From Escherichia coli (GTDB taxonomy: Bacteria; Pseudomonadota; Gammaproteobacteria; Enterobacterales; Enterobacteriaceae): a stretch of DNA of 64,000 bases. A program made the translations under genes and the position numbers. Below the pieces are notes generated by a model. That model saw only the letters and a program-made list of their open reading frames with translations. It was not told the origin of the DNA and did not search any database. The DNA is taken from the NCBI RefSeq assembly GCF_003991155.1, contig NZ_CP031293.1; one strand, 5' to 3'. Below, piece by piece: positions 11,417 through 50,113 of the stretch; position 1 is the stretch's first letter, and each line of letters starts with the position of its first letter.

Positions 11417-12262
11417 TCAGCCACGTCTTGCACGCTGGATATCGCGTATCCGCTGTTTTTCTGCGCGCGCCATCAGATACCAGGCGATAAATCCGACAAT
11501 TCCGACCGCGCCGAGGATTAATGTTGCCAGGGCGTTGATTTCCGGATTCACCCCCATCCGCACGCTGGAAAAGACCAGCATCGGTAACGTGGTGGCTCCC
11601 GGCCCTGAAACAAAGCTGGCGATCACCAGATCATCAAGCGACAAAGTAAAAGCCAGTAACCAGCCAGAAATGATCGCGGGCATGATCATCGGTAGCGTAA
11701 TGACGAAAAACACTTTCAGCGGCGTCGCACCAAGATCCATCGCGGCTTCTTCAATGGAACGGTCCAGCTCCCGCAATCTTGAAGAAATAACGACCGCCAC
11801 ATAAGCCATACAAAAAGTGACATGCGCCAGCCAGATGGTGAGCATACCGCGGTCCGCAGGCCAGCCAATGGCATGAGCAAGCGCGACGAATAATAACAAC
11901 AGCGACAAGCCCGTGATGACATCTGGCATTACCAGCGGCGCGGTGATCATAAAGGCAAAGCCATTTGATCCGCGAAACCTGCCAAAGCGCACCAGCACCA
12001 CCGCCGCAATCGTCCCGAGGATCGCCGCCGCCGTCGCCGCACAGGCCGCAATTGTCAGGCTTAAACCAACCGCACTCATCATCGCGTCATCGCGCAATAA
12101 TTCGCCATACCAGCGCGTTGACCAGCCGGCCCACACCGTCACCAGCTTCGAGCTGTTGAATGAATAGATCACCAGCATCAGCATTGGCGCGTAGAGAAAG
12201 GTGAAGCCCAGCAGCAAAATCACAATCCGCCAGGGCGAACGAACTACCGGTAAATTATTCAT
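11417..12262 (-). CDS. potI: Putrescine ABC transporter permease PotI
   Basis: 281 aa from MNNLPVV; start overlaps potH stop; track ORF over-extended. Confidence 0.9.
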   Translation of the reverse strand: MNNLPVVRSPWRIVILLLGFTFLYAPMLMLVIYSFNSSKLVTVWAGWSTRWYGELLRDDAMMSAVGLSLTIAACAATAAAILGTIAAVVLVRFGRFRGSNGFAFMITAPLVMPDVITGLSLLLLFVALAHAIGWPADRGMLTIWLAHVTFCMAYVAVVISSRLRELDRSIEEAAMDLGATPLKVFFVITLPMIMPAIISGWLLAFTLSLDDLVIASFVSGPGATTLPMLVFSSVRMGVNPEINALATLILGAVGIVGFIAWYLMARAEKQRIRDIQRARRG

Positions 12263-13212
12263 CCGTGTTCTCCCACGCTTTTTTGCTGATGCTTGTGGAA
12301 CCACATTATCGGCACAATTAGCAGCAGCAACATGATGATCGCTACCGCTGAGGCCACCGGCCAGTCGCGGTTGTTAAAGAACTCCTGCCACAGCACGCGC
12401 CCGATCATGATGCTGTCCGGGCCACCGAGCAGTTCAGGGATCACAAACTCGCCCACAGCCGGGATAAACACCAGCATCGATCCGGCAATAATCCCGCCTT
12501 TGGTCAGCGGCACGATCACAGTAAAGAACGTTTTCAGCGGTCGTGCACCGAGATCCAGTGCTGCTTCCACCAGCGAATAATCAATTCGAATCAACGCGGT
12601 ATAAATCGGCAGTACCATAAACGGCACGTAAGCGTAAACAATGCCAATATAAACTGCCAGATTGGTATGTAGAATGGTCAGCGGTTGATCGATAACCCCC
12701 AGCCACAGCAGAAAATTATTCAGCACACCGTTGTTTTTTAATATTCCCATCCAGGCGTAGACACGAATCAGAAACGAGGTCCACGACGGCAGGATCACCA
12801 GTAGTAATAAGATATTACGGGTCGAAGGCTTACTGTGCGCCACCGCCCACGCCAGCGGATAGCCGATCAGTAAACAGCAAATAGTCGAAATCGCCGCCAC
12901 CTGTAACGACTGGAGATAAGCATCGAAATAGAGCGGATCGTCAGTCAGTTGCAGAAAATTACCGAGATTAAGAGTGATGGAAAGTTGCCCGTCAGCCCAC
13001 TTCATCAGTTCGGTATAAGGTGGAATAGCGCGCGCCATCTCCGCCAGGCTTATTTTAAAGACAATCAGAAATGGCAGCAGAAACAGCAGGATTAGCCAGA
13101 TATACGGCAGCGCAATCACCAGTTTGCGCCCATGCTTCATTTGCAGCTGCGACAACCACAGCTTAAATCCGCCCGGCGGTTTCGACTGGGCAGCAGGTTC
13201 AAGTGTACTCAT
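12259..13212 (-). CDS. potH: Putrescine ABC transporter permease PotH
   Basis: 317 aa permease, operon position. Confidence 0.9.
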   Translation of the reverse strand: MSTLEPAAQSKPPGGFKLWLSQLQMKHGRKLVIALPYIWLILLFLLPFLIVFKISLAEMARAIPPYTELMKWADGQLSITLNLGNFLQLTDDPLYFDAYLQSLQVAAISTICCLLIGYPLAWAVAHSKPSTRNILLLLVILPSWTSFLIRVYAWMGILKNNGVLNNFLLWLGVIDQPLTILHTNLAVYIGIVYAYVPFMVLPIYTALIRIDYSLVEAALDLGARPLKTFFTVIVPLTKGGIIAGSMLVFIPAVGEFVIPELLGGPDSIMIGRVLWQEFFNNRDWPVASAVAIIMLLLLIVPIMWFHKHQQKSVGEHG

Positions 13213-13221
13213 TCTTGCTCC

Positions 13222-14355
13222 TTAAACCGTCAGCACCACACAGCTGTCCACTTCCCAGCACAAACGCACTTCATCGCCCCAGGTCGGTAACCCTTTACGA
13301 TGACGATGGGCGTTTTGCAGCTGGGCGCTGATCATCTGCCCACTTTTCAGACGAACGTGATACACCGAAAGATCGCCGAGATAGGCAATGTGTATCACCT
13401 CCCCCACCGCGAAGTTACAACCATTGGCGGGCGGTTCCTCGCAAAGCATGATTTTTTCCGGGCGAAGCGCCACATGCACCGGCACGTTATCGACCACTGA
13501 AGCATCCGCATCGACTTTCAGTGGGTGCACCAGTCCCGGCGAATAAAGCACCAGACCATCTTCCTGACGCTCTTTGAGTACACCTTCAAAGACATTAACC
13601 GAACCGATAAATTCAGCGCTATAGCGGGTGGTCGGATGCTCATAGATCTCTTCCGGTTCGCCAATCTGGACAAATTTCCCACGATTCATAATGGCGATAC
13701 GCCCCGCCATGGTCATCGCCTCTTCCTGATCGTGAGTAACCATCACGCAGGTCACACCGACGCGCTCCAGAATATCCACCACTTCAAGCTGCATCCGGTC
13801 ACGCAGCTTTTTATCCAGCGCGCCCATCGGCTCATCGAGCAGTAATAGTTTCGGGCGCTTGGCAAGGCTTCGGGCCAGGGCCACACGCTGTCGCTGACCA
13901 CCGGAAAGCTGATGCGGTTTGCGTTTGGCGAACTCCTGCATATGCACCAGCCCGAGCATCTCATTGACCCGGCTGGCAATTTCCGCTTTCGGTAGTTTGT
14001 CCTGTTTCAGGCCAAAAGCGATGTTCTGTTCCACGGTCATATGCGGAAACAGCGCGTAAGACTGAAACATCATATTGATGGGGCGCAGGTAAGGCGGCAC
14101 CTGTGACAAATCGACGCCATCGAGCATAATCTGCCCGGCAGAAGGTTGTTCGAAACCTGCCAGCATACGCAGCAGCGTGGACTTGCCACAGCCGGATGCG
14201 CCCAGCAGCGCGAAGATTTCGCCTTTATAGATGGTCAGGCTGACATCATCGACCGCATGCTGACCATCGTAAGATTTAGTCAGATTACGGATTTCTAATA
14301 GCGGCGTCAGCGCCTTACGGGTTTTCGCCTGCGGGCGAGGGATAGCGTCATTCAC
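13222..14355 (-). CDS. potG: Putrescine ABC transporter ATP-binding protein PotG
   Basis: Walker A GASGCGKST, LSGGQRQR; K-12-like N-terminus (V/M)NDAIPRPQ begins at a GTG codon (14353-14355); track ORF extends further upstream. Confidence 0.85.
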   Translation of the reverse strand: MNDAIPRPQAKTRKALTPLLEIRNLTKSYDGQHAVDDVSLTIYKGEIFALLGASGCGKSTLLRMLAGFEQPSAGQIMLDGVDLSQVPPYLRPINMMFQSYALFPHMTVEQNIAFGLKQDKLPKAEIASRVNEMLGLVHMQEFAKRKPHQLSGGQRQRVALARSLAKRPKLLLLDEPMGALDKKLRDRMQLEVVDILERVGVTCVMVTHDQEEAMTMAGRIAIMNRGKFVQIGEPEEIYEHPTTRYSAEFIGSVNVFEGVLKERQEDGLVLYSPGLVHPLKVDADASVVDNVPVHVALRPEKIMLCEEPPANGCNFAVGEVIHIAYLGDLSVYHVRLKSGQMISAQLQNAHRHRKGLPTWGDEVRLCWEVDSCVVLTV

Positions 14356-14449
14356 GGCTGCTCTCCGGCATTGAATGTGTGCAAGCGCACCATAATGGTG
14401 CGAATTGCCGGCGGGTGTGTTGCGCCCGTCCGGCATCTACGACTGCGGA

Positions 14450-15562
14450 TTATTTTCCGCTCTTCACTTTGGTCCACGCGCGGGTGCGCACACGGTCTAT
14501 TTTTGGATCCTGCACTTTCAGAGTGAACAACTTCGCACGAACGTCCGCCGGAGGATAAATCCCTGGATTATCACGCACTTCCGCGCTTACCAGCGGCGTA
14601 GCTTCTTTGTTCGCGTTGGCATAGAACACATGGTCGGAAATATGCGCCACCACATCCGGGCGCAGCAGGTAATTCAGGAACTGATAGGCTTCGTCTTTAT
14701 TTTTGGCATCCGCAGGCATGGCGAAGACATCAAAGAACGCCATCGCCCCTTCTTTCGGAATCGAGAACGAGACATTAACGCCATTCTTCGCTTCCTTCGC
14801 GCGGTTTGACGCCTGCCAGACATCGCCCGCCCAGCCAATAGCGACGCAGATATCGCCGTTTGCCAGGTCGTTAATGTATTGAGATGAATGGAAATAACGA
14901 ATGTTCGGACGCAGCTTTAACAGCAGATCGGTTGCCGGTCCGGTGTAATCATCTGCTTTAGTGCTGTTGGGATCTTTACCGAGATAATTCAGCACGGTAG
15001 CAAACACTTCTTCCGGTGCATCAAGGAAAGAGACGCCGCAGCTTTTCAGTTTTTCCAGATTTTCAGGCTTGAGGATCAAGTCCCAGCTATCGACGGGCGC
15101 GTTTTCGCCCAGCACCGCTTTAACTTTATCAACGTTATAGCCAATCCCGGTCGTCGCCCACATATAGGGCATAGCAAATTTATTGTCGGGATCGTGTTTG
15201 GCAACCAACTTCAGCAGCTCCGGATCGAGATTCTTCCACTCCGGCAATTTGCTTTTGTCCAGCGGCTGGAAAACTCCCGCAGTCAACTGGCGTTCAAGAA
15301 AGCTTGCTGACGGCACCACCAGGTCAAAGCCGGTGCTACCCGCCATTAATTTGCCTTCCAGTACTTCGTTAGAGTCGAAAACATCGTAGACGACTTTAAT
15401 ACCGGTTTCTTTTTCAAAATTGGCCACCGTGTCCGGGGCGATATAATCAGACCAGTTATAAATGTGGAGTATTTTTTGTTCAGCCGCGAGCGTGCTGACA
15501 GAGACGGCCATCAGAGCACCCGCAACCAGACCCGATAGCCATTTTTTATTTAAGGCGGTCAT
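14450..15562 (-). CDS. potF: Putrescine-binding periplasmic protein PotF
   Basis: 370 aa from MTALNKKWLSGLVAGALMA (signal peptide); track ORF over-extended. Confidence 0.9.
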   Translation of the reverse strand: MTALNKKWLSGLVAGALMAVSVSTLAAEQKILHIYNWSDYIAPDTVANFEKETGIKVVYDVFDSNEVLEGKLMAGSTGFDLVVPSASFLERQLTAGVFQPLDKSKLPEWKNLDPELLKLVAKHDPDNKFAMPYMWATTGIGYNVDKVKAVLGENAPVDSWDLILKPENLEKLKSCGVSFLDAPEEVFATVLNYLGKDPNSTKADDYTGPATDLLLKLRPNIRYFHSSQYINDLANGDICVAIGWAGDVWQASNRAKEAKNGVNVSFSIPKEGAMAFFDVFAMPADAKNKDEAYQFLNYLLRPDVVAHISDHVFYANANKEATPLVSAEVRDNPGIYPPADVRAKLFTLKVQDPKIDRVRTRAWTKVKSGK

Positions 15563-15912
15563 ATCTCTTTCCTTCTGAAAGTTCGTTAACAAACGAACAA
15601 AAGTTGTCACACTGAAAGATATGCAATAAACGTGCATATTTTTTATCGGCGCGGTGTAAGAAAAGAGAACTCTCTCCCGGCCAGCACTGCTCGCTATATA
15701 AAAGCATCGCAAGAATAACTTTAGCCAGGGTTTGAGACTATAGCTCGGATTAAAAAACGGTATTTAACAAATTTTTATGCGTATTTGCTCTATGTGATAA
15801 AGCCAAATCGACACAAGAGAAGTGAAACAATCTTTAAGAAAAGGTTAAAAACAGCAGATAATTTTGCAGCGCGCAGTCACTGCACCAGCGACTGCGTGCT
15901 CGAAAGGAGTTA

Positions 15913-16389
15913 TCAGTGGAGGAAATAGTTTTCAGTAACGTTGTTTTGCCCTTCATCGTCAGTCGGTAACAGCAGTTGATGGGCATTAGCTTCAAGAATG
16001 ACCATCGAAATCTGCTCTTCGCTCTGACGCACGAACCATGCAAACTGCTCATAGGTTACGCCCTGCATAACGGATAAAGACTGGCAAACCACCAGCTTTG
16101 GCAGATTATCATCCTGCATATCAAGAAATGCTTTCACGGTCAGCGAACTGGCATTGATGGCAGATAAATCCGCCGCCAGCGGCAATACGGCTGAAGGTCG
16201 GACTTCCGCCATGGCAGAAAACAGGATCGTGTTATCGATCAGATCGATTTTGGCATCAAAGACACCGTCGAAATTCTGCATATGGGGCAGATGCAGAGCC
16301 TGACAGTTATCACATTCAAAAAAACTCATCCCCAGGTCATCGAGCCATTGACGCAGCGTATCCAGACCAGGAACGACCAGCGATGTCAT
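15913..16389 (-). CDS. ybjN: Putative sensory transduction regulator YbjN
   Basis: 158 aa from MTSLVVPGLDTLRQW; recognised sequence. Confidence 0.85.
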   Translation of the reverse strand: MTSLVVPGLDTLRQWLDDLGMSFFECDNCQALHLPHMQNFDGVFDAKIDLIDNTILFSAMAEVRPSAVLPLAADLSAINASSLTVKAFLDMQDDNLPKLVVCQSLSVMQGVTYEQFAWFVRQSEEQISMVILEANAHQLLLPTDDEGQNNVTENYFLH

Positions 16390-24440: not shown

Positions 24441-25673
24441 TTACCCTTCGTGCGAATTTCCCATCTGTTTATCTTTTAAAAAGATAACCATCAGCAACAG
24501 CCACAAAATGCCGTTGACAAGGTTGAAGAGATTAAACAGTCCGTTGCCCCCGTTCAGCCAGGCATGTTTGCTGATTTCAATACCGACGGTAAAGATCAGC
24601 ATTTGCAGCATCCCCATCGCCGCAGAAACCGTACCTTTACTCATATCGCTGGCAAACAGGGTTAATCGCACCAGTCCCGCATTCGCCAGACCAATACCGA
24701 AAGCATAAAGACTTAACCCGGCGGTCATCCATAAATACGCATGCGATGAGATAACCGTTGCCGCAGCAGCGACCAACAGACCAATCATAATCGGCCAGCC
24801 GCCCATAATAATCAGCGAACGTACGGTGCGGCGCGAGGTCAGACGCGCTAACAGCAAGTTACCCGCAATTAACGCCCCGAAAATAGGCACTTGCAGCAAA
24901 CCATATTCATAGCTGCTCAACTGCTCGCCGGTAATGATGATAATCGGCGACTGGGCGATCCACGCCAGCAATGGCAGGCTAACGAATCCCAGCGCCAGCG
25001 CCCCCGCCACAAAGCGACCGTTCTTCAGCACCAGCTTATAGTCACGACCGAGTTCTTTCAGCGACAGTTTCTCGCCTATACGCGTGGCGGTTTCAGGCAT
25101 GGCTCGTTGTAGACCGAAAAAGGAGATCGCTGCCAATGCGGCAAACAAGACAAACATCCCCTCCCAGGGCAGCACATGGATCCACGCCGCGCCCACCAGC
25201 GGACCAAGTAGCGGAGCAATCAGCGCCACGTTCGCCATCAGCGCGGTGATCTTGATACAAACCGCCTCTTCGAAGGATTCCTGAATTGCGGCGTATCCCA
25301 CAGCGCCAATGAAACAGAGGCTTATGCCCTGCAAGAAGCGCAACAGGGTGAATTGTTCAATGTTTTGCGCCAGTAATATTGCCAGACAGGTGACGATAAA
25401 CCACACCACTCCCGCCAGCATCACCGGACGGCGGCCAATACGATCCGACAGCGGCCCCAGGAGCCATTGTAAAAACATCCCGCCCGCCAGATACGCGGTC
25501 ATCGAAGTAGGAACCCAATCAATGCCCGCCTGATATTGTTCCACCACCGCCAACATACCGGGTTGAATCATATCGTTGCCGATATAGGTTGAAAATTCGT
25601 AAAGCACCAGACAGAGAGGGAAAAGTAACGCCTGACGTCCAAGCCTGGCACCGGAAGCTAATTTATTTTGCAT
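24441..25673 (-). CDS. mdfA: Multidrug efflux MFS transporter MdfA (Cmr)
   Basis: 410 aa from [14 protein letters not shown]; recognised sequence. Confidence 0.9.
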
Positions 25674-25957
25674 GCAATTTCTTCGCCAATAATAATCGCG
25701 CAAAGTTTAATAAAAGCGCAGCTAACGAGCAAGCGAATTTTGTAGCTGAAACCACGGTTAAGCACATTCTTACATTATTGCGAGTATAGCTACGCTTTCT
25801 TTAAGTTTTATTTAACCTATGCCCGTTACAATCACCCACCGTAAACAGGCCGCTTGAGGGAAATAAGACGATGCCGCTTTACCCAGTTTAACCTGCACTT
25901 TATTCTCAACGACTTGCCTGTATTGGCTCCCTTTTAATCACTTTGCGTCGGGAAGTT

Positions 25958-47680: not shown

Positions 47681-50113
47681 ATGACCACACTGAAACTGGA
47701 CACGCTCAGCGACCGCATTAAAGCGCACAAAAATGCGCTGGTGCATATTGTGAAACCACCAGTCTGTACCGAGCGCGCGCAGCACTATACCGAGATGTAT
47801 CAACAACATCTCGATAAGCCGATCCCGGTACGTCGCGCGCTGGCACTGGCGCATCACCTGGCGAATCGCACCATCTGGATCAAGCACGATGAGTTGATCA
47901 TCGGCAACCAGGCAAGCGAGGTTCGCGCCGCGCCGATCTTCCCGGAATATACCGTCTCGTGGATCGAAAAAGAGATTGATGATCTGGCAGATCGTCCGGG
48001 TGCTGGTTTTGCGGTGAGCGAGGAGAACAAACGTGTTCTGCATGAAGTGTGCCCGTGGTGGCGCGGTCAGACGGTACAGGATCGCTGCTACGGCATGTTT
48101 ACCGATGAGCAAAAAGGTCTGCTGGCGACCGGCATCATTAAAGCGGAGGGCAATATGACCTCCGGCGATGCGCACCTGGCGGTGAATTTCCCGCTACTGC
48201 TGGAAAAAGGGCTTGATGGTCTGCGTGAGAAAGTGGCGGAACGTCGCTCGCGCATCAATCTGACGGTACTGGAAGATCTGCACGGCGAGCAATTCCTGAA
48301 AGCGATTGATATCGTGCTGGTGGCAGTCAGTGAACACATTGAACGTTTCGCTGCCCTGGCGCGTGAAATGGCCACGACCGAAACCCGCGAAAGCCGTCGC
48401 GATGAACTGCTGGCGATGGCAGAAAACTGCGATCTTATCGCCCACCAACCGCCGCAGACTTTCTGGCAGGCGCTGCAACTGTGTTACTTCATCCAGTTGA
48501 TATTGCAGATCGAATCTAACGGTCACTCAGTATCTTTTGGTCGTATGGACCAGTATCTCTATCCATACTATCGCCGTGACGTTGAACTGAACCAGACACT
48601 GGATCGCGAACACGCCATCGAGATGCTGCATAGCTGCTGGTTGAAATTGCTGGAAGTGAACAAAATCCGCTCCGGCTCACACTCAAAAGCCTCTGCGGGA
48701 AGTCCGCTGTATCAGAACGTCACCATTGGCGGGCAAAATCTGGTTGATGGTCAACCGATGGACGCGGTAAATCCACTCTCTTATGCGATCCTCGAATCTT
48801 GCGGTCGCCTGCGTTCGACTCAGCCTAACCTCAGCGTGCGTTACCATGCGGGTATGAGTAACGATTTCCTCGACGCCTGTGTTCAGGTGATCCGCTGCGG
48901 CTTCGGGATGCCGGCGTTCAACAACGACGAAATCGTCATCCCGGAATTTATTAAACTCGGTATTGAACCGCAGGACGCTTACGACTATGCAGCGATTGGT
49001 TGTATCGAAACCGCCGTCGGTGGCAAATGGGGCTATCGCTGTACCGGCATGAGCTTTATCAACTTCGCCCGCGTGATGCTGGCGGCGCTGGAAGGCGGTC
49101 GTGATGCCACCAGCGGCAAAGTGTTCCTGCCACAAGAAAAAGCGTTGTCAGCGGGTAACTTCAACAACTTCGATGAAGTAATGGACGCATGGGATACGCA
49201 AATCCGTTACTACACGCGTAAATCAATCGAAATCGAATATGTCGTCGACACCATGCTGGAAGAGAACGTACACGATATTCTCTGCTCGGCGCTGGTGGAT
49301 GACTGTATTGAGCGAGCGAAAAGTATCAAGCAAGGCGGCGCGAAATATGACTGGGTTTCTGGCCTGCAGGTCGGCATTGCTAACCTCGGCAACAGCCTGG
49401 CGGCAGTGAAGAAACTGGTATTTGAACAGGGCGCGATTGGTCAGCAACAGCTGGCTGCCGCACTGGCGGATGACTTCGACGGCCTGACTCACGAGCAGCT
49501 GCGTCAGCGGCTGATTAACGGTGCGCCTAAGTACGGCAACGACGATGATACTGTCGATACGCTGCTGGCTCGCGCTTATCAGACCTATATCGACGAACTA
49601 AAACAGTACCATAACCCGCGCTATGGTCGTGGTCCGGTTGGCGGCAATTATTACGCGGGTACGTCATCTATCTCCGCTAACGTACCCTTTGGCGCGCAGA
49701 CGATGGCAACGCCGGACGGACGTAAAGCGCATACCCCGCTGGCAGAAGGCGCTAGTCCGGCCTCCGGTACTGACCATCTCGGCCCAACGGCGGTCATTGG
49801 CTCAGTGGGTAAACTGCCTACGGCCGCGATTCTCGGCGGCGTGCTGCTCAACCAGAAACTGAATCCAGCAACGCTGGAGAACGAATCTGACAAGCAGAAA
49901 CTGATGATCCTGCTGCGCACCTTCTTTGAAGTGCATAAAGGCTGGCATATTCAGTACAACATCGTTTCCCGCGAGACGCTGCTGGAGGCGAAAAAACATC
50001 CCGATCAGTATCGCGATCTGGTAGTGCGCGTCGCGGGCTATTCCGCCTTCTTCACCGCGCTCTCTCCAGACGCTCAGGACGATATCATCGCCCGTACTGA
50101 ACATATGCTGTAA
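47681..50113 (+). CDS. ybiW: Glycyl radical enzyme YbiW (PflF, pyruvate formate-lyase-like)
   Basis: 810 aa; C-terminal glycyl radical motif RVAGYSAFF; catalytic GCIE Cys pair region. Confidence 0.9.
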   Translation: MTTLKLDTLSDRIKAHKNALVHIVKPPVCTERAQHYTEMYQQHLDKPIPVRRALALAHHLANRTIWIKHDELIIGNQASEVRAAPIFPEYTVSWIEKEIDDLADRPGAGFAVSEENKRVLHEVCPWWRGQTVQDRCYGMFTDEQKGLLATGIIKAEGNMTSGDAHLAVNFPLLLEKGLDGLREKVAERRSRINLTVLEDLHGEQFLKAIDIVLVAVSEHIERFAALAREMATTETRESRRDELLAMAENCDLIAHQPPQTFWQALQLCYFIQLILQIESNGHSVSFGRMDQYLYPYYRRDVELNQTLDREHAIEMLHSCWLKLLEVNKIRSGSHSKASAGSPLYQNVTIGGQNLVDGQPMDAVNPLSYAILESCGRLRSTQPNLSVRYHAGMSNDFLDACVQVIRCGFGMPAFNNDEIVIPEFIKLGIEPQDAYDYAAIGCIETAVGGKWGYRCTGMSFINFARVMLAALEGGRDATSGKVFLPQEKALSAGNFNNFDEVMDAWDTQIRYYTRKSIEIEYVVDTMLEENVHDILCSALVDDCIERAKSIKQGGAKYDWVSGLQVGIANLGNSLAAVKKLVFEQGAIGQQQLAAALADDFDGLTHEQLRQRLINGAPKYGNDDDTVDTLLARAYQTYIDELKQYHNPRYGRGPVGGNYYAGTSSISANVPFGAQTMATPDGRKAHTPLAEGASPASGTDHLGPTAVIGSVGKLPTAAILGGVLLNQKLNPATLENESDKQKLMILLRTFFEVHKGWHIQYNIVSRETLLEAKKHPDQYRDLVVRVAGYSAFFTALSPDAQDDIIARTEHML

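Follow-up and report, generated by a model that had tools for sequence, protein, structure and literature searches.

Is the sigma-54-like motif upstream of the putrescine transporter operon potFGHI of Escherichia coli a functional promoter, and if so, where does its activator bind? The original prediction, made from the letters of a 64,000-nucleotide stretch (the window; contig NZ_CP031293.1 of RefSeq assembly GCF_003991155.1), placed a possible sigma-54 promoter with an imperfect -24 element at 15622-15637, 60-75 bp upstream of the potF ATG, and considered it plausible for a nitrogen-regulated operon. Its coordinates and sequence are correct, and the complete sigma-54 recognition site is a 17-mer that extends one base further: the minus strand reads TATGCACGTTTATTGCA from 15638 to 15622, with T as the next base (15637..15621 reads aTGCACgtttaTTGCAt). 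The potF ATG lies at 15562, 59 nt from the last motif base, which puts the 17-mer 59-75 nt upstream and agrees with the predicted distance. The features are as follows.

15622..15638, minus strand: sigma-54 17-mer TATGCACGTTTATTGCA, defined by its sequence, identity with the ChIP-seq site OS08, PSSM score and invariance of its arms
15637-15632, minus strand: -24 element ATGCAC, in which T replaces the first G of GG
15626-15622, minus strand: -12 element TTGCA, giving the spacing TG-N10-GC
14450..15562, minus strand: potF, putrescine-binding periplasmic protein of 370 aa (open reading frame; RefSeq annotation of identical DNA)
11417..14355, minus strand: potG, potH and potI, encoding the ATPase and two permeases, co-transcribed with potF (open reading frames; K-12 potG start; full-length potF-potG-potH reads)

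The motif is intergenic, between ybjN and potF, and points toward potF. The 601 bp around it are 100% identical to several complete E. coli genomes, in which RefSeq annotates ybjN and potF as the flanking genes. Over positions 15400-16000, only 433 of 5421 E. coli records match the ybjN-potF spacer with 99% identity or more; the rest reach 95-99%.

How closely does the motif resemble sites that sigma-54 occupies in vivo? We scored it with a PSSM derived from the 135 E. coli sigma-54 sites defined by ChIP-seq (Bonocora 2015), from which potF was excluded, leaving 134. The canonical spacing between the G of the -24 and the GC of the -12 element is present: G4, G15 and C16, found in 134, 134 and 125 of the 135 sites, all occur in TATGCACGTTTATTGCA. 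The deviation that had been predicted is confined to 17-mer position 3, where T stands for the first G of GG. At this position, 130 of the 135 in vivo sites have G, 3 have A and 2, potF and ygfT, have T; the first G is strongly preferred for sigma-54 binding, but not obligatory. With 8.56 bits, the potF motif ranks third from the bottom among the 135 sites, and 48 positions of the window, both strands counted, equal or exceed it. As a control for the PSSM, the two highest scores in the window fall on known sites, at glnH (15.6 bits) and in the rcdA/mdfA region (15.2 bits).

63485-63501, plus strand: glnHp2, sigma-54 promoter CTGGCACGATTTTTTCA of glnHPQ, 15.6 bits, ChIP-seq site OS06
25673-25689, minus strand: sigma-54 site TTGGCGAAGAAATTGCA, ChIP-seq site OS07 in the ybjG/mdfA(cmr)-rcdA region, 15.2 bits

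OS07 is known to be bound, yet no obvious target gene is close to it; rcdA is 3.7 kb away. Further strong matches of 12.4-15.2 bits lie outside the 135 high-stringency sites, at 44853-44869, 872-888 and 37784-37800 on the plus strand and at 48039-48055 and 12631-12647 on the minus strand, the last of them inside potH. They may be low-stringency sites or unbound, and they make the PSSM score alone a poor predictor.

Could the potF motif then be a chance match without function? The pattern TGCAC-N5-TTGCA occurs once in the 64-kb window against an expectation of 0.26, and 22 of 100 shuffled windows (22%) contain it at least once. Together with the 48 positions of equal or better score, these figures speak for a fortuitous match; the motif is not significant from sequence alone, so the case for function rests on its context. 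The exact 17-mer is the in vivo sigma-54 ChIP-seq site OS08 (Bonocora 2015, PMC4591121), with the peak centre at 892944 and the motif centre at 892939, i.e. within 5 bp, and the two elements persist across genera while the spacer between them varies (see below). A peak centred on the motif and this pattern of conservation effectively refute a chance match.

The promoter potFp is thus already known: sigma-54 binding at the exact 17-mer was published in 2015, and the promoter is catalogued in RegulonDB and EcoCyc, so that the flagged site in itself adds nothing new. RegulonDB counted potF among the sigma-54 promoters by 2011, and an earlier ChIP-chip region (892604-893381; Bonocora 2015 S3 table, PMC4591121) covers the motif. 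For OS08 a start 49 nt before potF was predicted, with EcoCyc status 'predicted' (Bonocora 2015, PMC4591121). Nitrogen regulation of the putrescine operon, anticipated in the original prediction, is supported by RT-qPCR of potG and potI only, whose mRNAs rise 6.0-fold and 3.2-fold upon nitrogen depletion, an induction that the authors ascribe to RpoN and NtrC (Shimada 2021, PMC8743547). In view of this binding, the catalogue entries and the cross-species footprint described below, we assign a probability of roughly three in four to a functional sigma-54 promoter, potFp of potFGHI, at 15638-15622 on the minus strand.

In vitro, the strongest peak of RpoN holoenzyme in gSELEX also falls in the ybjN-potF spacer (Shimada 2021, PMC8743547). 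This peak, at 892632, sits 307 bp from the ChIP-seq motif and 57 bp from a second, weaker sequence.

15872-15888, minus strand: weak sigma-54-like 17-mer CTGGTGCAGTGACTGCG, directly after the ybjN stop codon (centre 892689 in K-12 U00096.2)

We rejected this upstream 17-mer (15888-15872) as a true sigma-54 site: it scores 8.3 bits here and 6.95 bits in K-12, and it is not kept in other genera.

Is the potF motif maintained by selection? To answer this question, we compared potF loci from 80 species. The pattern ATGCA(C/T)-N5-(T/C)TGCA occurs upstream of potF in 54 of them, with fixed spacing in all 54 and a gap of 58-60 nt to the ATG in 38. Its carriers span about 20 genera of Enterobacteriaceae, among them Escherichia, Citrobacter, Enterobacter, Klebsiella, Raoultella, Kosakonia, Leclercia, Phytobacter, Pluralibacter, Mangrovibacter, Siccibacter, Cedecea and Buttiauxella. 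The motif is absent upstream of potF in the Yersinia, Serratia, Pectobacterium, Dickeya and Rahnella of this set. In an unconstrained alignment of 37 potF upstream sequences, ATGCA and GCAT are unchanged in all 37 and TTGCAT in all except two Salmonella, whereas the intervening bases change freely; even the most divergent E. coli strain differs in spacer bases only. The motif has decayed in Salmonella, where TTGC has become AGGC, and in Yokenella, through a 2-bp deletion in the spacer. The same pattern of conservation is found in the S5 table of Bonocora 2015 (PMC4591121). Invariant arms at a fixed spacing around a drifting spacer are the footprint of a two-element site, which argues for function. 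The T at position 3 is constant in every motif-bearing genus, and never G. Judged by this comparison, the retention of an imperfect TG -24 element across about 20 genera is new here. A sigma-54 site with a 'broken' GG can thus be real and deeply conserved, and scans that rely on the consensus only will miss such sites and over-call others, as the 48 equal-scoring positions in 64 kb illustrate.

Some of the invariant bases exceed what sigma-54 demands. Motif positions 2-3 are always A-T and TTGCA is always followed by T, although the sigma-54 consensus asks for neither, and together the invariant bases form a palindrome, ATGCA-N7-TGCAT. This may reflect either an overlapping second function or selection for a specific weak variant. 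Could the palindrome mainly be an operator for a dimeric regulator such as ArgR, AtoC or another factor, or a hairpin of the leader RNA, with its likeness to sigma-54 sites being secondary? Besides the surplus invariant bases, the -24 element shares bases with an ARG-box-like 14-mer in 35 of 54 loci, compared to a mean of about 0.28 matches per offset; ArgR occupies the potF promoter region in vivo; and the two arms pair in the leader RNA, in the MFE fold as well as in the consensus fold. The E. coli sequence, in contrast, is a poor ARG box with mismatches at 4 of 10 core positions, and we discarded an ArgR box over the -24 element as a general explanation. An AtoC operator was rejected as well: the atoD half-site GCTATGCAGAAATTTGCACA (TATGCA-N5-TTGCA) is one base shorter between its arms than the potF motif, and potF is not among the reported AtoC targets. 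A constraint on RNA only should have produced covarying arms, but the arms never covary; they do not change at all. Moreover, sigma-54 binds in vivo not only the potF motif but also the near-identical TATGCCCGTTTATTGCA at ygfT. We consider an operator or hairpin as the main function improbable; either could add to sigma-54 function, not replace it.

If potFp is a functional sigma-54 promoter, where is its activator site? NtrC enhancers usually lie about 100-150 bp upstream of a sigma-54 promoter, but potF has none at this position, and in none of the 80 species do the 600-1000 bp preceding potF contain an NtrC-type site. We scanned the window with the NtrC consensus, with glnHp2 and its three overlapping NtrC sites as an internal positive control. 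The scan returned these three known sites and one other good match, CGCACCATTATGGTGCG, located in the spacer between potF and potG.

14386..14402, no strand: NtrC-type perfect palindrome CGCACCATTATGGTGCG in the potF-potG spacer (894945-894961 in NC_000913.3), with 2 mismatches to TGCACCA-N3-TGGTGCA; proposed remote enhancer
14367..14383, minus strand: half-palindromic NtrC-like site TGCACACATTCAATGCC, 2 bp past the palindrome (spacer listing across genera)

The palindrome begins 48 nt past the potF stop codon and occupies the positions 31-47 nt before the GTG start of potG; about 1.23 kb separate its centre from the sigma-54 -12 element, in the downstream direction. From its sequence, we infer that TGCACACATTCAATGCC may be a second NtrC dimer site. 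In most genera a second half-site TGCAC(C) follows the dyad after 2-6 bp, as is expected of an enhancer that assembles an NtrC oligomer. The palindrome and its adjacent half-site thereby show the layout of NtrC dyads, TGCACCA-N3-TGGTGCA with neighboring sites. A strict core, GCAC(C/T)-N5-(G/A)GTGC, occurs once in the potF-potG spacer, twice at glnH and nowhere else in the window; shuffled windows contain 0.27 on average, and three were reached in 1 of 200.

The potF-potG spacers of the 80 species, 17.6 kb in total, contain 43 strict cores, always at most 220 bp past the potF stop codon. By comparison, 80 kb upstream of potF, 89 kb of potF coding sequence and the examined part of potG contain not a single copy. 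The core goes together with the promoter motif: 43 species carry both, 11 the sigma-54 motif only, none the NtrC core only and 26 neither, counts from species that are not phylogenetically independent. Most of the 11 species with the sigma-54 motif and without a strict core retain degenerate NtrC copies. In Salmonella and Yokenella, both the sigma-54 motif and the NtrC core are degraded.

Published NtrC data bear on this site in two ways. An NtrC gSELEX peak at 894130 (95%) coincides with the potF-potG palindrome, and a potG probe was gel-shifted by NtrC in vitro (Shimada 2021, PMC8743547). Of the 21 NtrC ChIP-seq peaks in nitrogen-starved cells, none lies at potF or potG (Brown 2014). In nature, a position 1.2 kb downstream would be unusual for a sigma-54 enhancer, which counts against this reading. 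From the sequence comparison, the activator site of potFp appears to lie about 1.2 kb downstream, between the first two genes of the operon, an arrangement that appears not to have been described previously. The downstream-enhancer step taken by itself we regard as tentative, its odds falling somewhat short of even.

Does the NtrC site instead belong to a promoter of its own? It was read as part of a 'potG promoter' by Shimada 2021 (PMC8743547), and the published data are usually taken to indicate two promoters, potF and potG. In this scenario the sigma-54 site at potF would be poised or non-productive, and nitrogen induction would come from a separate NtrC-dependent potGHI promoter, or from Nac, Lrp or ArgR acting indirectly on a basal promoter at -143 (see below). 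Several observations favor it. Occupancy of OS08 is weak (FAT 2, i.e. 2-fold above threshold; Bonocora 2015, PMC4591121) and its -24 element is poor; most of the Bonocora sites were without transcription in their conditions, as the authors stress (PMC4591121). The RT-qPCR covered potG and potI, not potF, and NtrC binds adjacent to potG in vitro. Lrp, ArgR and ArcA sites are annotated in the potF promoter region.

The E. coli sequence next to potG speaks against such a promoter. A PSSM scan of the potF 3' end, the spacer and early potG yielded no sigma-54 match above 7.3 bits at 14300-15000 on the operon strand. Close to potG, the sequences of E. coli (TGGTGCG-CTTGCA, derived from the palindrome), Enterobacter and Klebsiella have the spacing GG-N7-GC, with which sigma-54 is not compatible. 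None of the 135 sigma-54 ChIP-seq sites is at potG (Bonocora 2015, PMC4591121), and SMRT-Cappable-seq reports potF-potG and potF-potG-potH transcripts, but none that starts at potG. In addition, the NtrC site lies so close to the potG start codon (31-47 nt) that no room is left for a promoter downstream of it. We therefore rejected a separate sigma-54 promoter for potG in E. coli, on the grounds of PSSM score, spacing and the lack of a potG-initiated transcript. The retention of both potF elements and their exact spacing in about 20 genera, while the intervening bases drift, equally speaks against a non-productive site at potF.

Citrobacter and relatives (loci L003, L006, L007, L008 and L038) supply a point for the opposite side. 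They carry a canonical sigma-54 17-mer, CTGGTGCGTTATTTGCA, of up to 16.2 bits, about 86-104 nt past the potF stop codon and directly upstream of potG. This 17-mer combines the right arm of the NtrC dyad with the left arm of the half-site that follows, and it arises because the gap to this half-site exceeds that of E. coli by 3 bp. The 17-mer may represent a genuine Citrobacter potG promoter, or a by-product of the similarity between NtrC and sigma-54 half-sites. Taken together, a poised site at potF with induction from elsewhere is unlikely. One sigma-54 promoter with a remote downstream enhancer would be the best reading of the comparative evidence, which it fits better than two promoters.

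Which transcripts does the potF region produce? The observed and predicted starts are these.

15610..15611, minus strand: predicted sigma-54 start (about 893735 in NC_000913.3), 48-49 nt before the ATG and about 11-12 nt past the -12 GC
15705, minus strand: observed basal potF start, -143 from the ATG (Cappable-seq 892864 in U00096.2, score 27.1)
15717-15712, minus strand: candidate -10 element TATTCT of the -143 promoter, as read from the sequence

The rule of Bonocora, which places the start 19 bp downstream of the motif centre, leads to the distance of 49 to potF. Start-site maps, presumably of nitrogen-replete cells, list starts at -143/-144, -130/-126 and -17, and none at -49; the SMRT-Cappable-seq transcripts potF-potG(-potH) begin at 893640 and 893654 in NC_000913.3. 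In Cappable-seq, the -143 start is the main one, and those at -126 and -17 are minor. Lack of a -49 start in nitrogen-replete cells is predicted for an NtrC-dependent promoter and hence is neutral for our model. The -143 transcript reads through the sigma-54 site, and its promoter is probably of the sigma-70 type. A sigma-70 promoter overlapping the motif (TGACA and GCATAT) was rejected, since its -10 candidate is without the conserved final T in most genera and a scan with the consensus returned nothing like a sigma-70 site on the potF strand.

The leader RNA contains two further elements.

15581..15598, minus strand: 5' UTR hairpin GTTCGTT-TGTT-AACGAAC, 18 nt before the ATG (covariation; RNAalifold; MFE fold)
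15661..15680, minus strand: ccGGGAGAGAGttCTCTTTTCTT, a stretch of purines and then a pyrimidine tract, in the long leader past the -143 start and before the sigma-54 site

The hairpin close to the ATG has undergone real compensatory change between genera: 85.6% of its cells are paired, 3 pairs have changed on both sides, and its covariation score was reached by 0 of 500 shuffles. Its third pair is CG in 8 cases, UA in 8, UG in 4 and GC in 1, and the central GTTAAC is conserved; RNAalifold keeps the hairpin, and it is also present in the MFE fold. It would be part of the transcripts from both promoters, and could be a stabiliser of the mRNA or a protein or ArcA-like site. The ccGGGAGAGAGttCTCTTTTCTT region is variable in the alignment yet self-complementary across genera, and in folding models can form a local hairpin or pair, through its tract, with the Shine-Dalgarno region. 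In the MFE structure of the 143-nt E. coli leader (-39 kcal/mol, z = -2.34), the tract UCUCUUUUCUU (15671-15661) pairs with the Shine-Dalgarno region (15563-15575). This pairing occurs in 8 of 20 genera and is absent from the consensus fold; we therefore rejected a conserved long-range masking of the Shine-Dalgarno sequence in the -143 leader. A transcript from the sigma-54 start would be without the pyrimidine tract.

How might these elements work together? In the mechanism that we propose, sigma-54 RNA polymerase would reside on TATGCAC-N4-TTGCA as a closed complex under all conditions, in keeping with the in vivo binding shown by others. The -24 element is a conserved weak variant, TG for GG, and no NtrC site lies upstream. 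Upon nitrogen exhaustion, phosphorylated NtrC would remodel the closed complex, so that transcription starts about 49 nt before the ATG. The enhancer would most likely consist of the NtrC palindrome and its adjacent half-site, about 1.23 kb downstream, and would reach the promoter by DNA looping. In nitrogen-replete cells, as published start-site data suggest, the operon would be read from the separate -143 promoter through the sigma-54 site. In its widest form, our proposal is that potFp, a natural sigma-54 promoter, has its NtrC enhancer on the far side of potF, about 1.2 kb downstream, and that the two have been kept or lost together in Enterobacteriaceae, in a two-promoter system whose nitrogen-stress transcript, in E. 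coli and some relatives, would be without the leader segment that pairs with the ribosome binding site. This combined claim is possible but doubtful, roughly one chance to two against it. If true, it would be a rare natural long-range downstream enhancer in bacteria, in a well-studied and easily tested operon.

The closest known parallel is glnHp2 in the same window, 55 nt before the glnH ATG at 63557, accompanied by NtrC-type sites at 63370-63412 and one more strict core, at 63239. Like potFp, it drives a nitrogen-scavenging ABC-transporter operon from a sigma-54 promoter some 55 nt before the start codon of the binding protein, has NtrC-type dyads associated with it, and is bound by sigma-54 in ChIP-seq (OS06). 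Unlike potFp (TG, 8.6 bits), it has a canonical GG and 15.6 bits; its three overlapping NtrC sites lie 75-115 bp upstream of the -24 element, whereas the only NtrC-type site of potFp is 1.23 kb downstream. An NtrC ChIP-seq peak marks glnHp2, but neither potF nor potG. The site most similar in sequence is OS32 at ygfT, TATGCCCGTTTATTGCA, the only other of the 135 with T at position 3 and identical to potF in 16 of 17 positions. It shares the T after TTGCA and weak occupancy (FAT 3, compared to 2 at potF), but is part of another regulon, the purine/xanthine catabolism cluster, and its conservation outside E. coli is poor. A distant NtrC site is also known for relA, 649-838 bp upstream of the relA start and inside rlmD (Brown 2014), where the sigma-54 site is itself intragenic (IS32). 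The relA enhancer, however, is upstream and was seen by NtrC ChIP-seq and EMSA, whereas the potF-potG site lies downstream of the promoter, with a whole gene in between, and has no reported ChIP-seq peak.

Is a distance of 1.2 kb, in the downstream direction, at all compatible with activation? In enhancer relocation work on glnAp2, by Reitzer and Magasanik in 1986 and by Ninfa, Studitsky and colleagues, NtrC sites reportedly activate from more than 1 kb away, also from downstream. These results make the geometry proposed for potF physically plausible. The glnAp2 constructs were engineered, whereas the potF arrangement would be natural and evolutionarily conserved.

Three minor observations concern the window and its relatives. 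The distance from rcdA to glnH, mapped by means of known sites, is about 2.2 kb longer than in K-12; the window is not from K-12. In some genera, an ERIC/IRU-like repeat (…AATCCCCAGGAGCTTACATAAGTAAGTGACTGGGGTGA…) is inserted near potF, for example in the potF-potG spacer of locus L058. Finally, Kluyvera (locus L016, 265 nt upstream of potF) and Pseudocitrobacter (locus L025, 141 nt upstream) carry canonical sigma-54 motifs, TTGGCGAGATTCTTGCA with 15.9 bits and TTGGCGAGGTTTTTGCA with 16.6 bits, respectively, and both are located upstream of the conserved potF motif.
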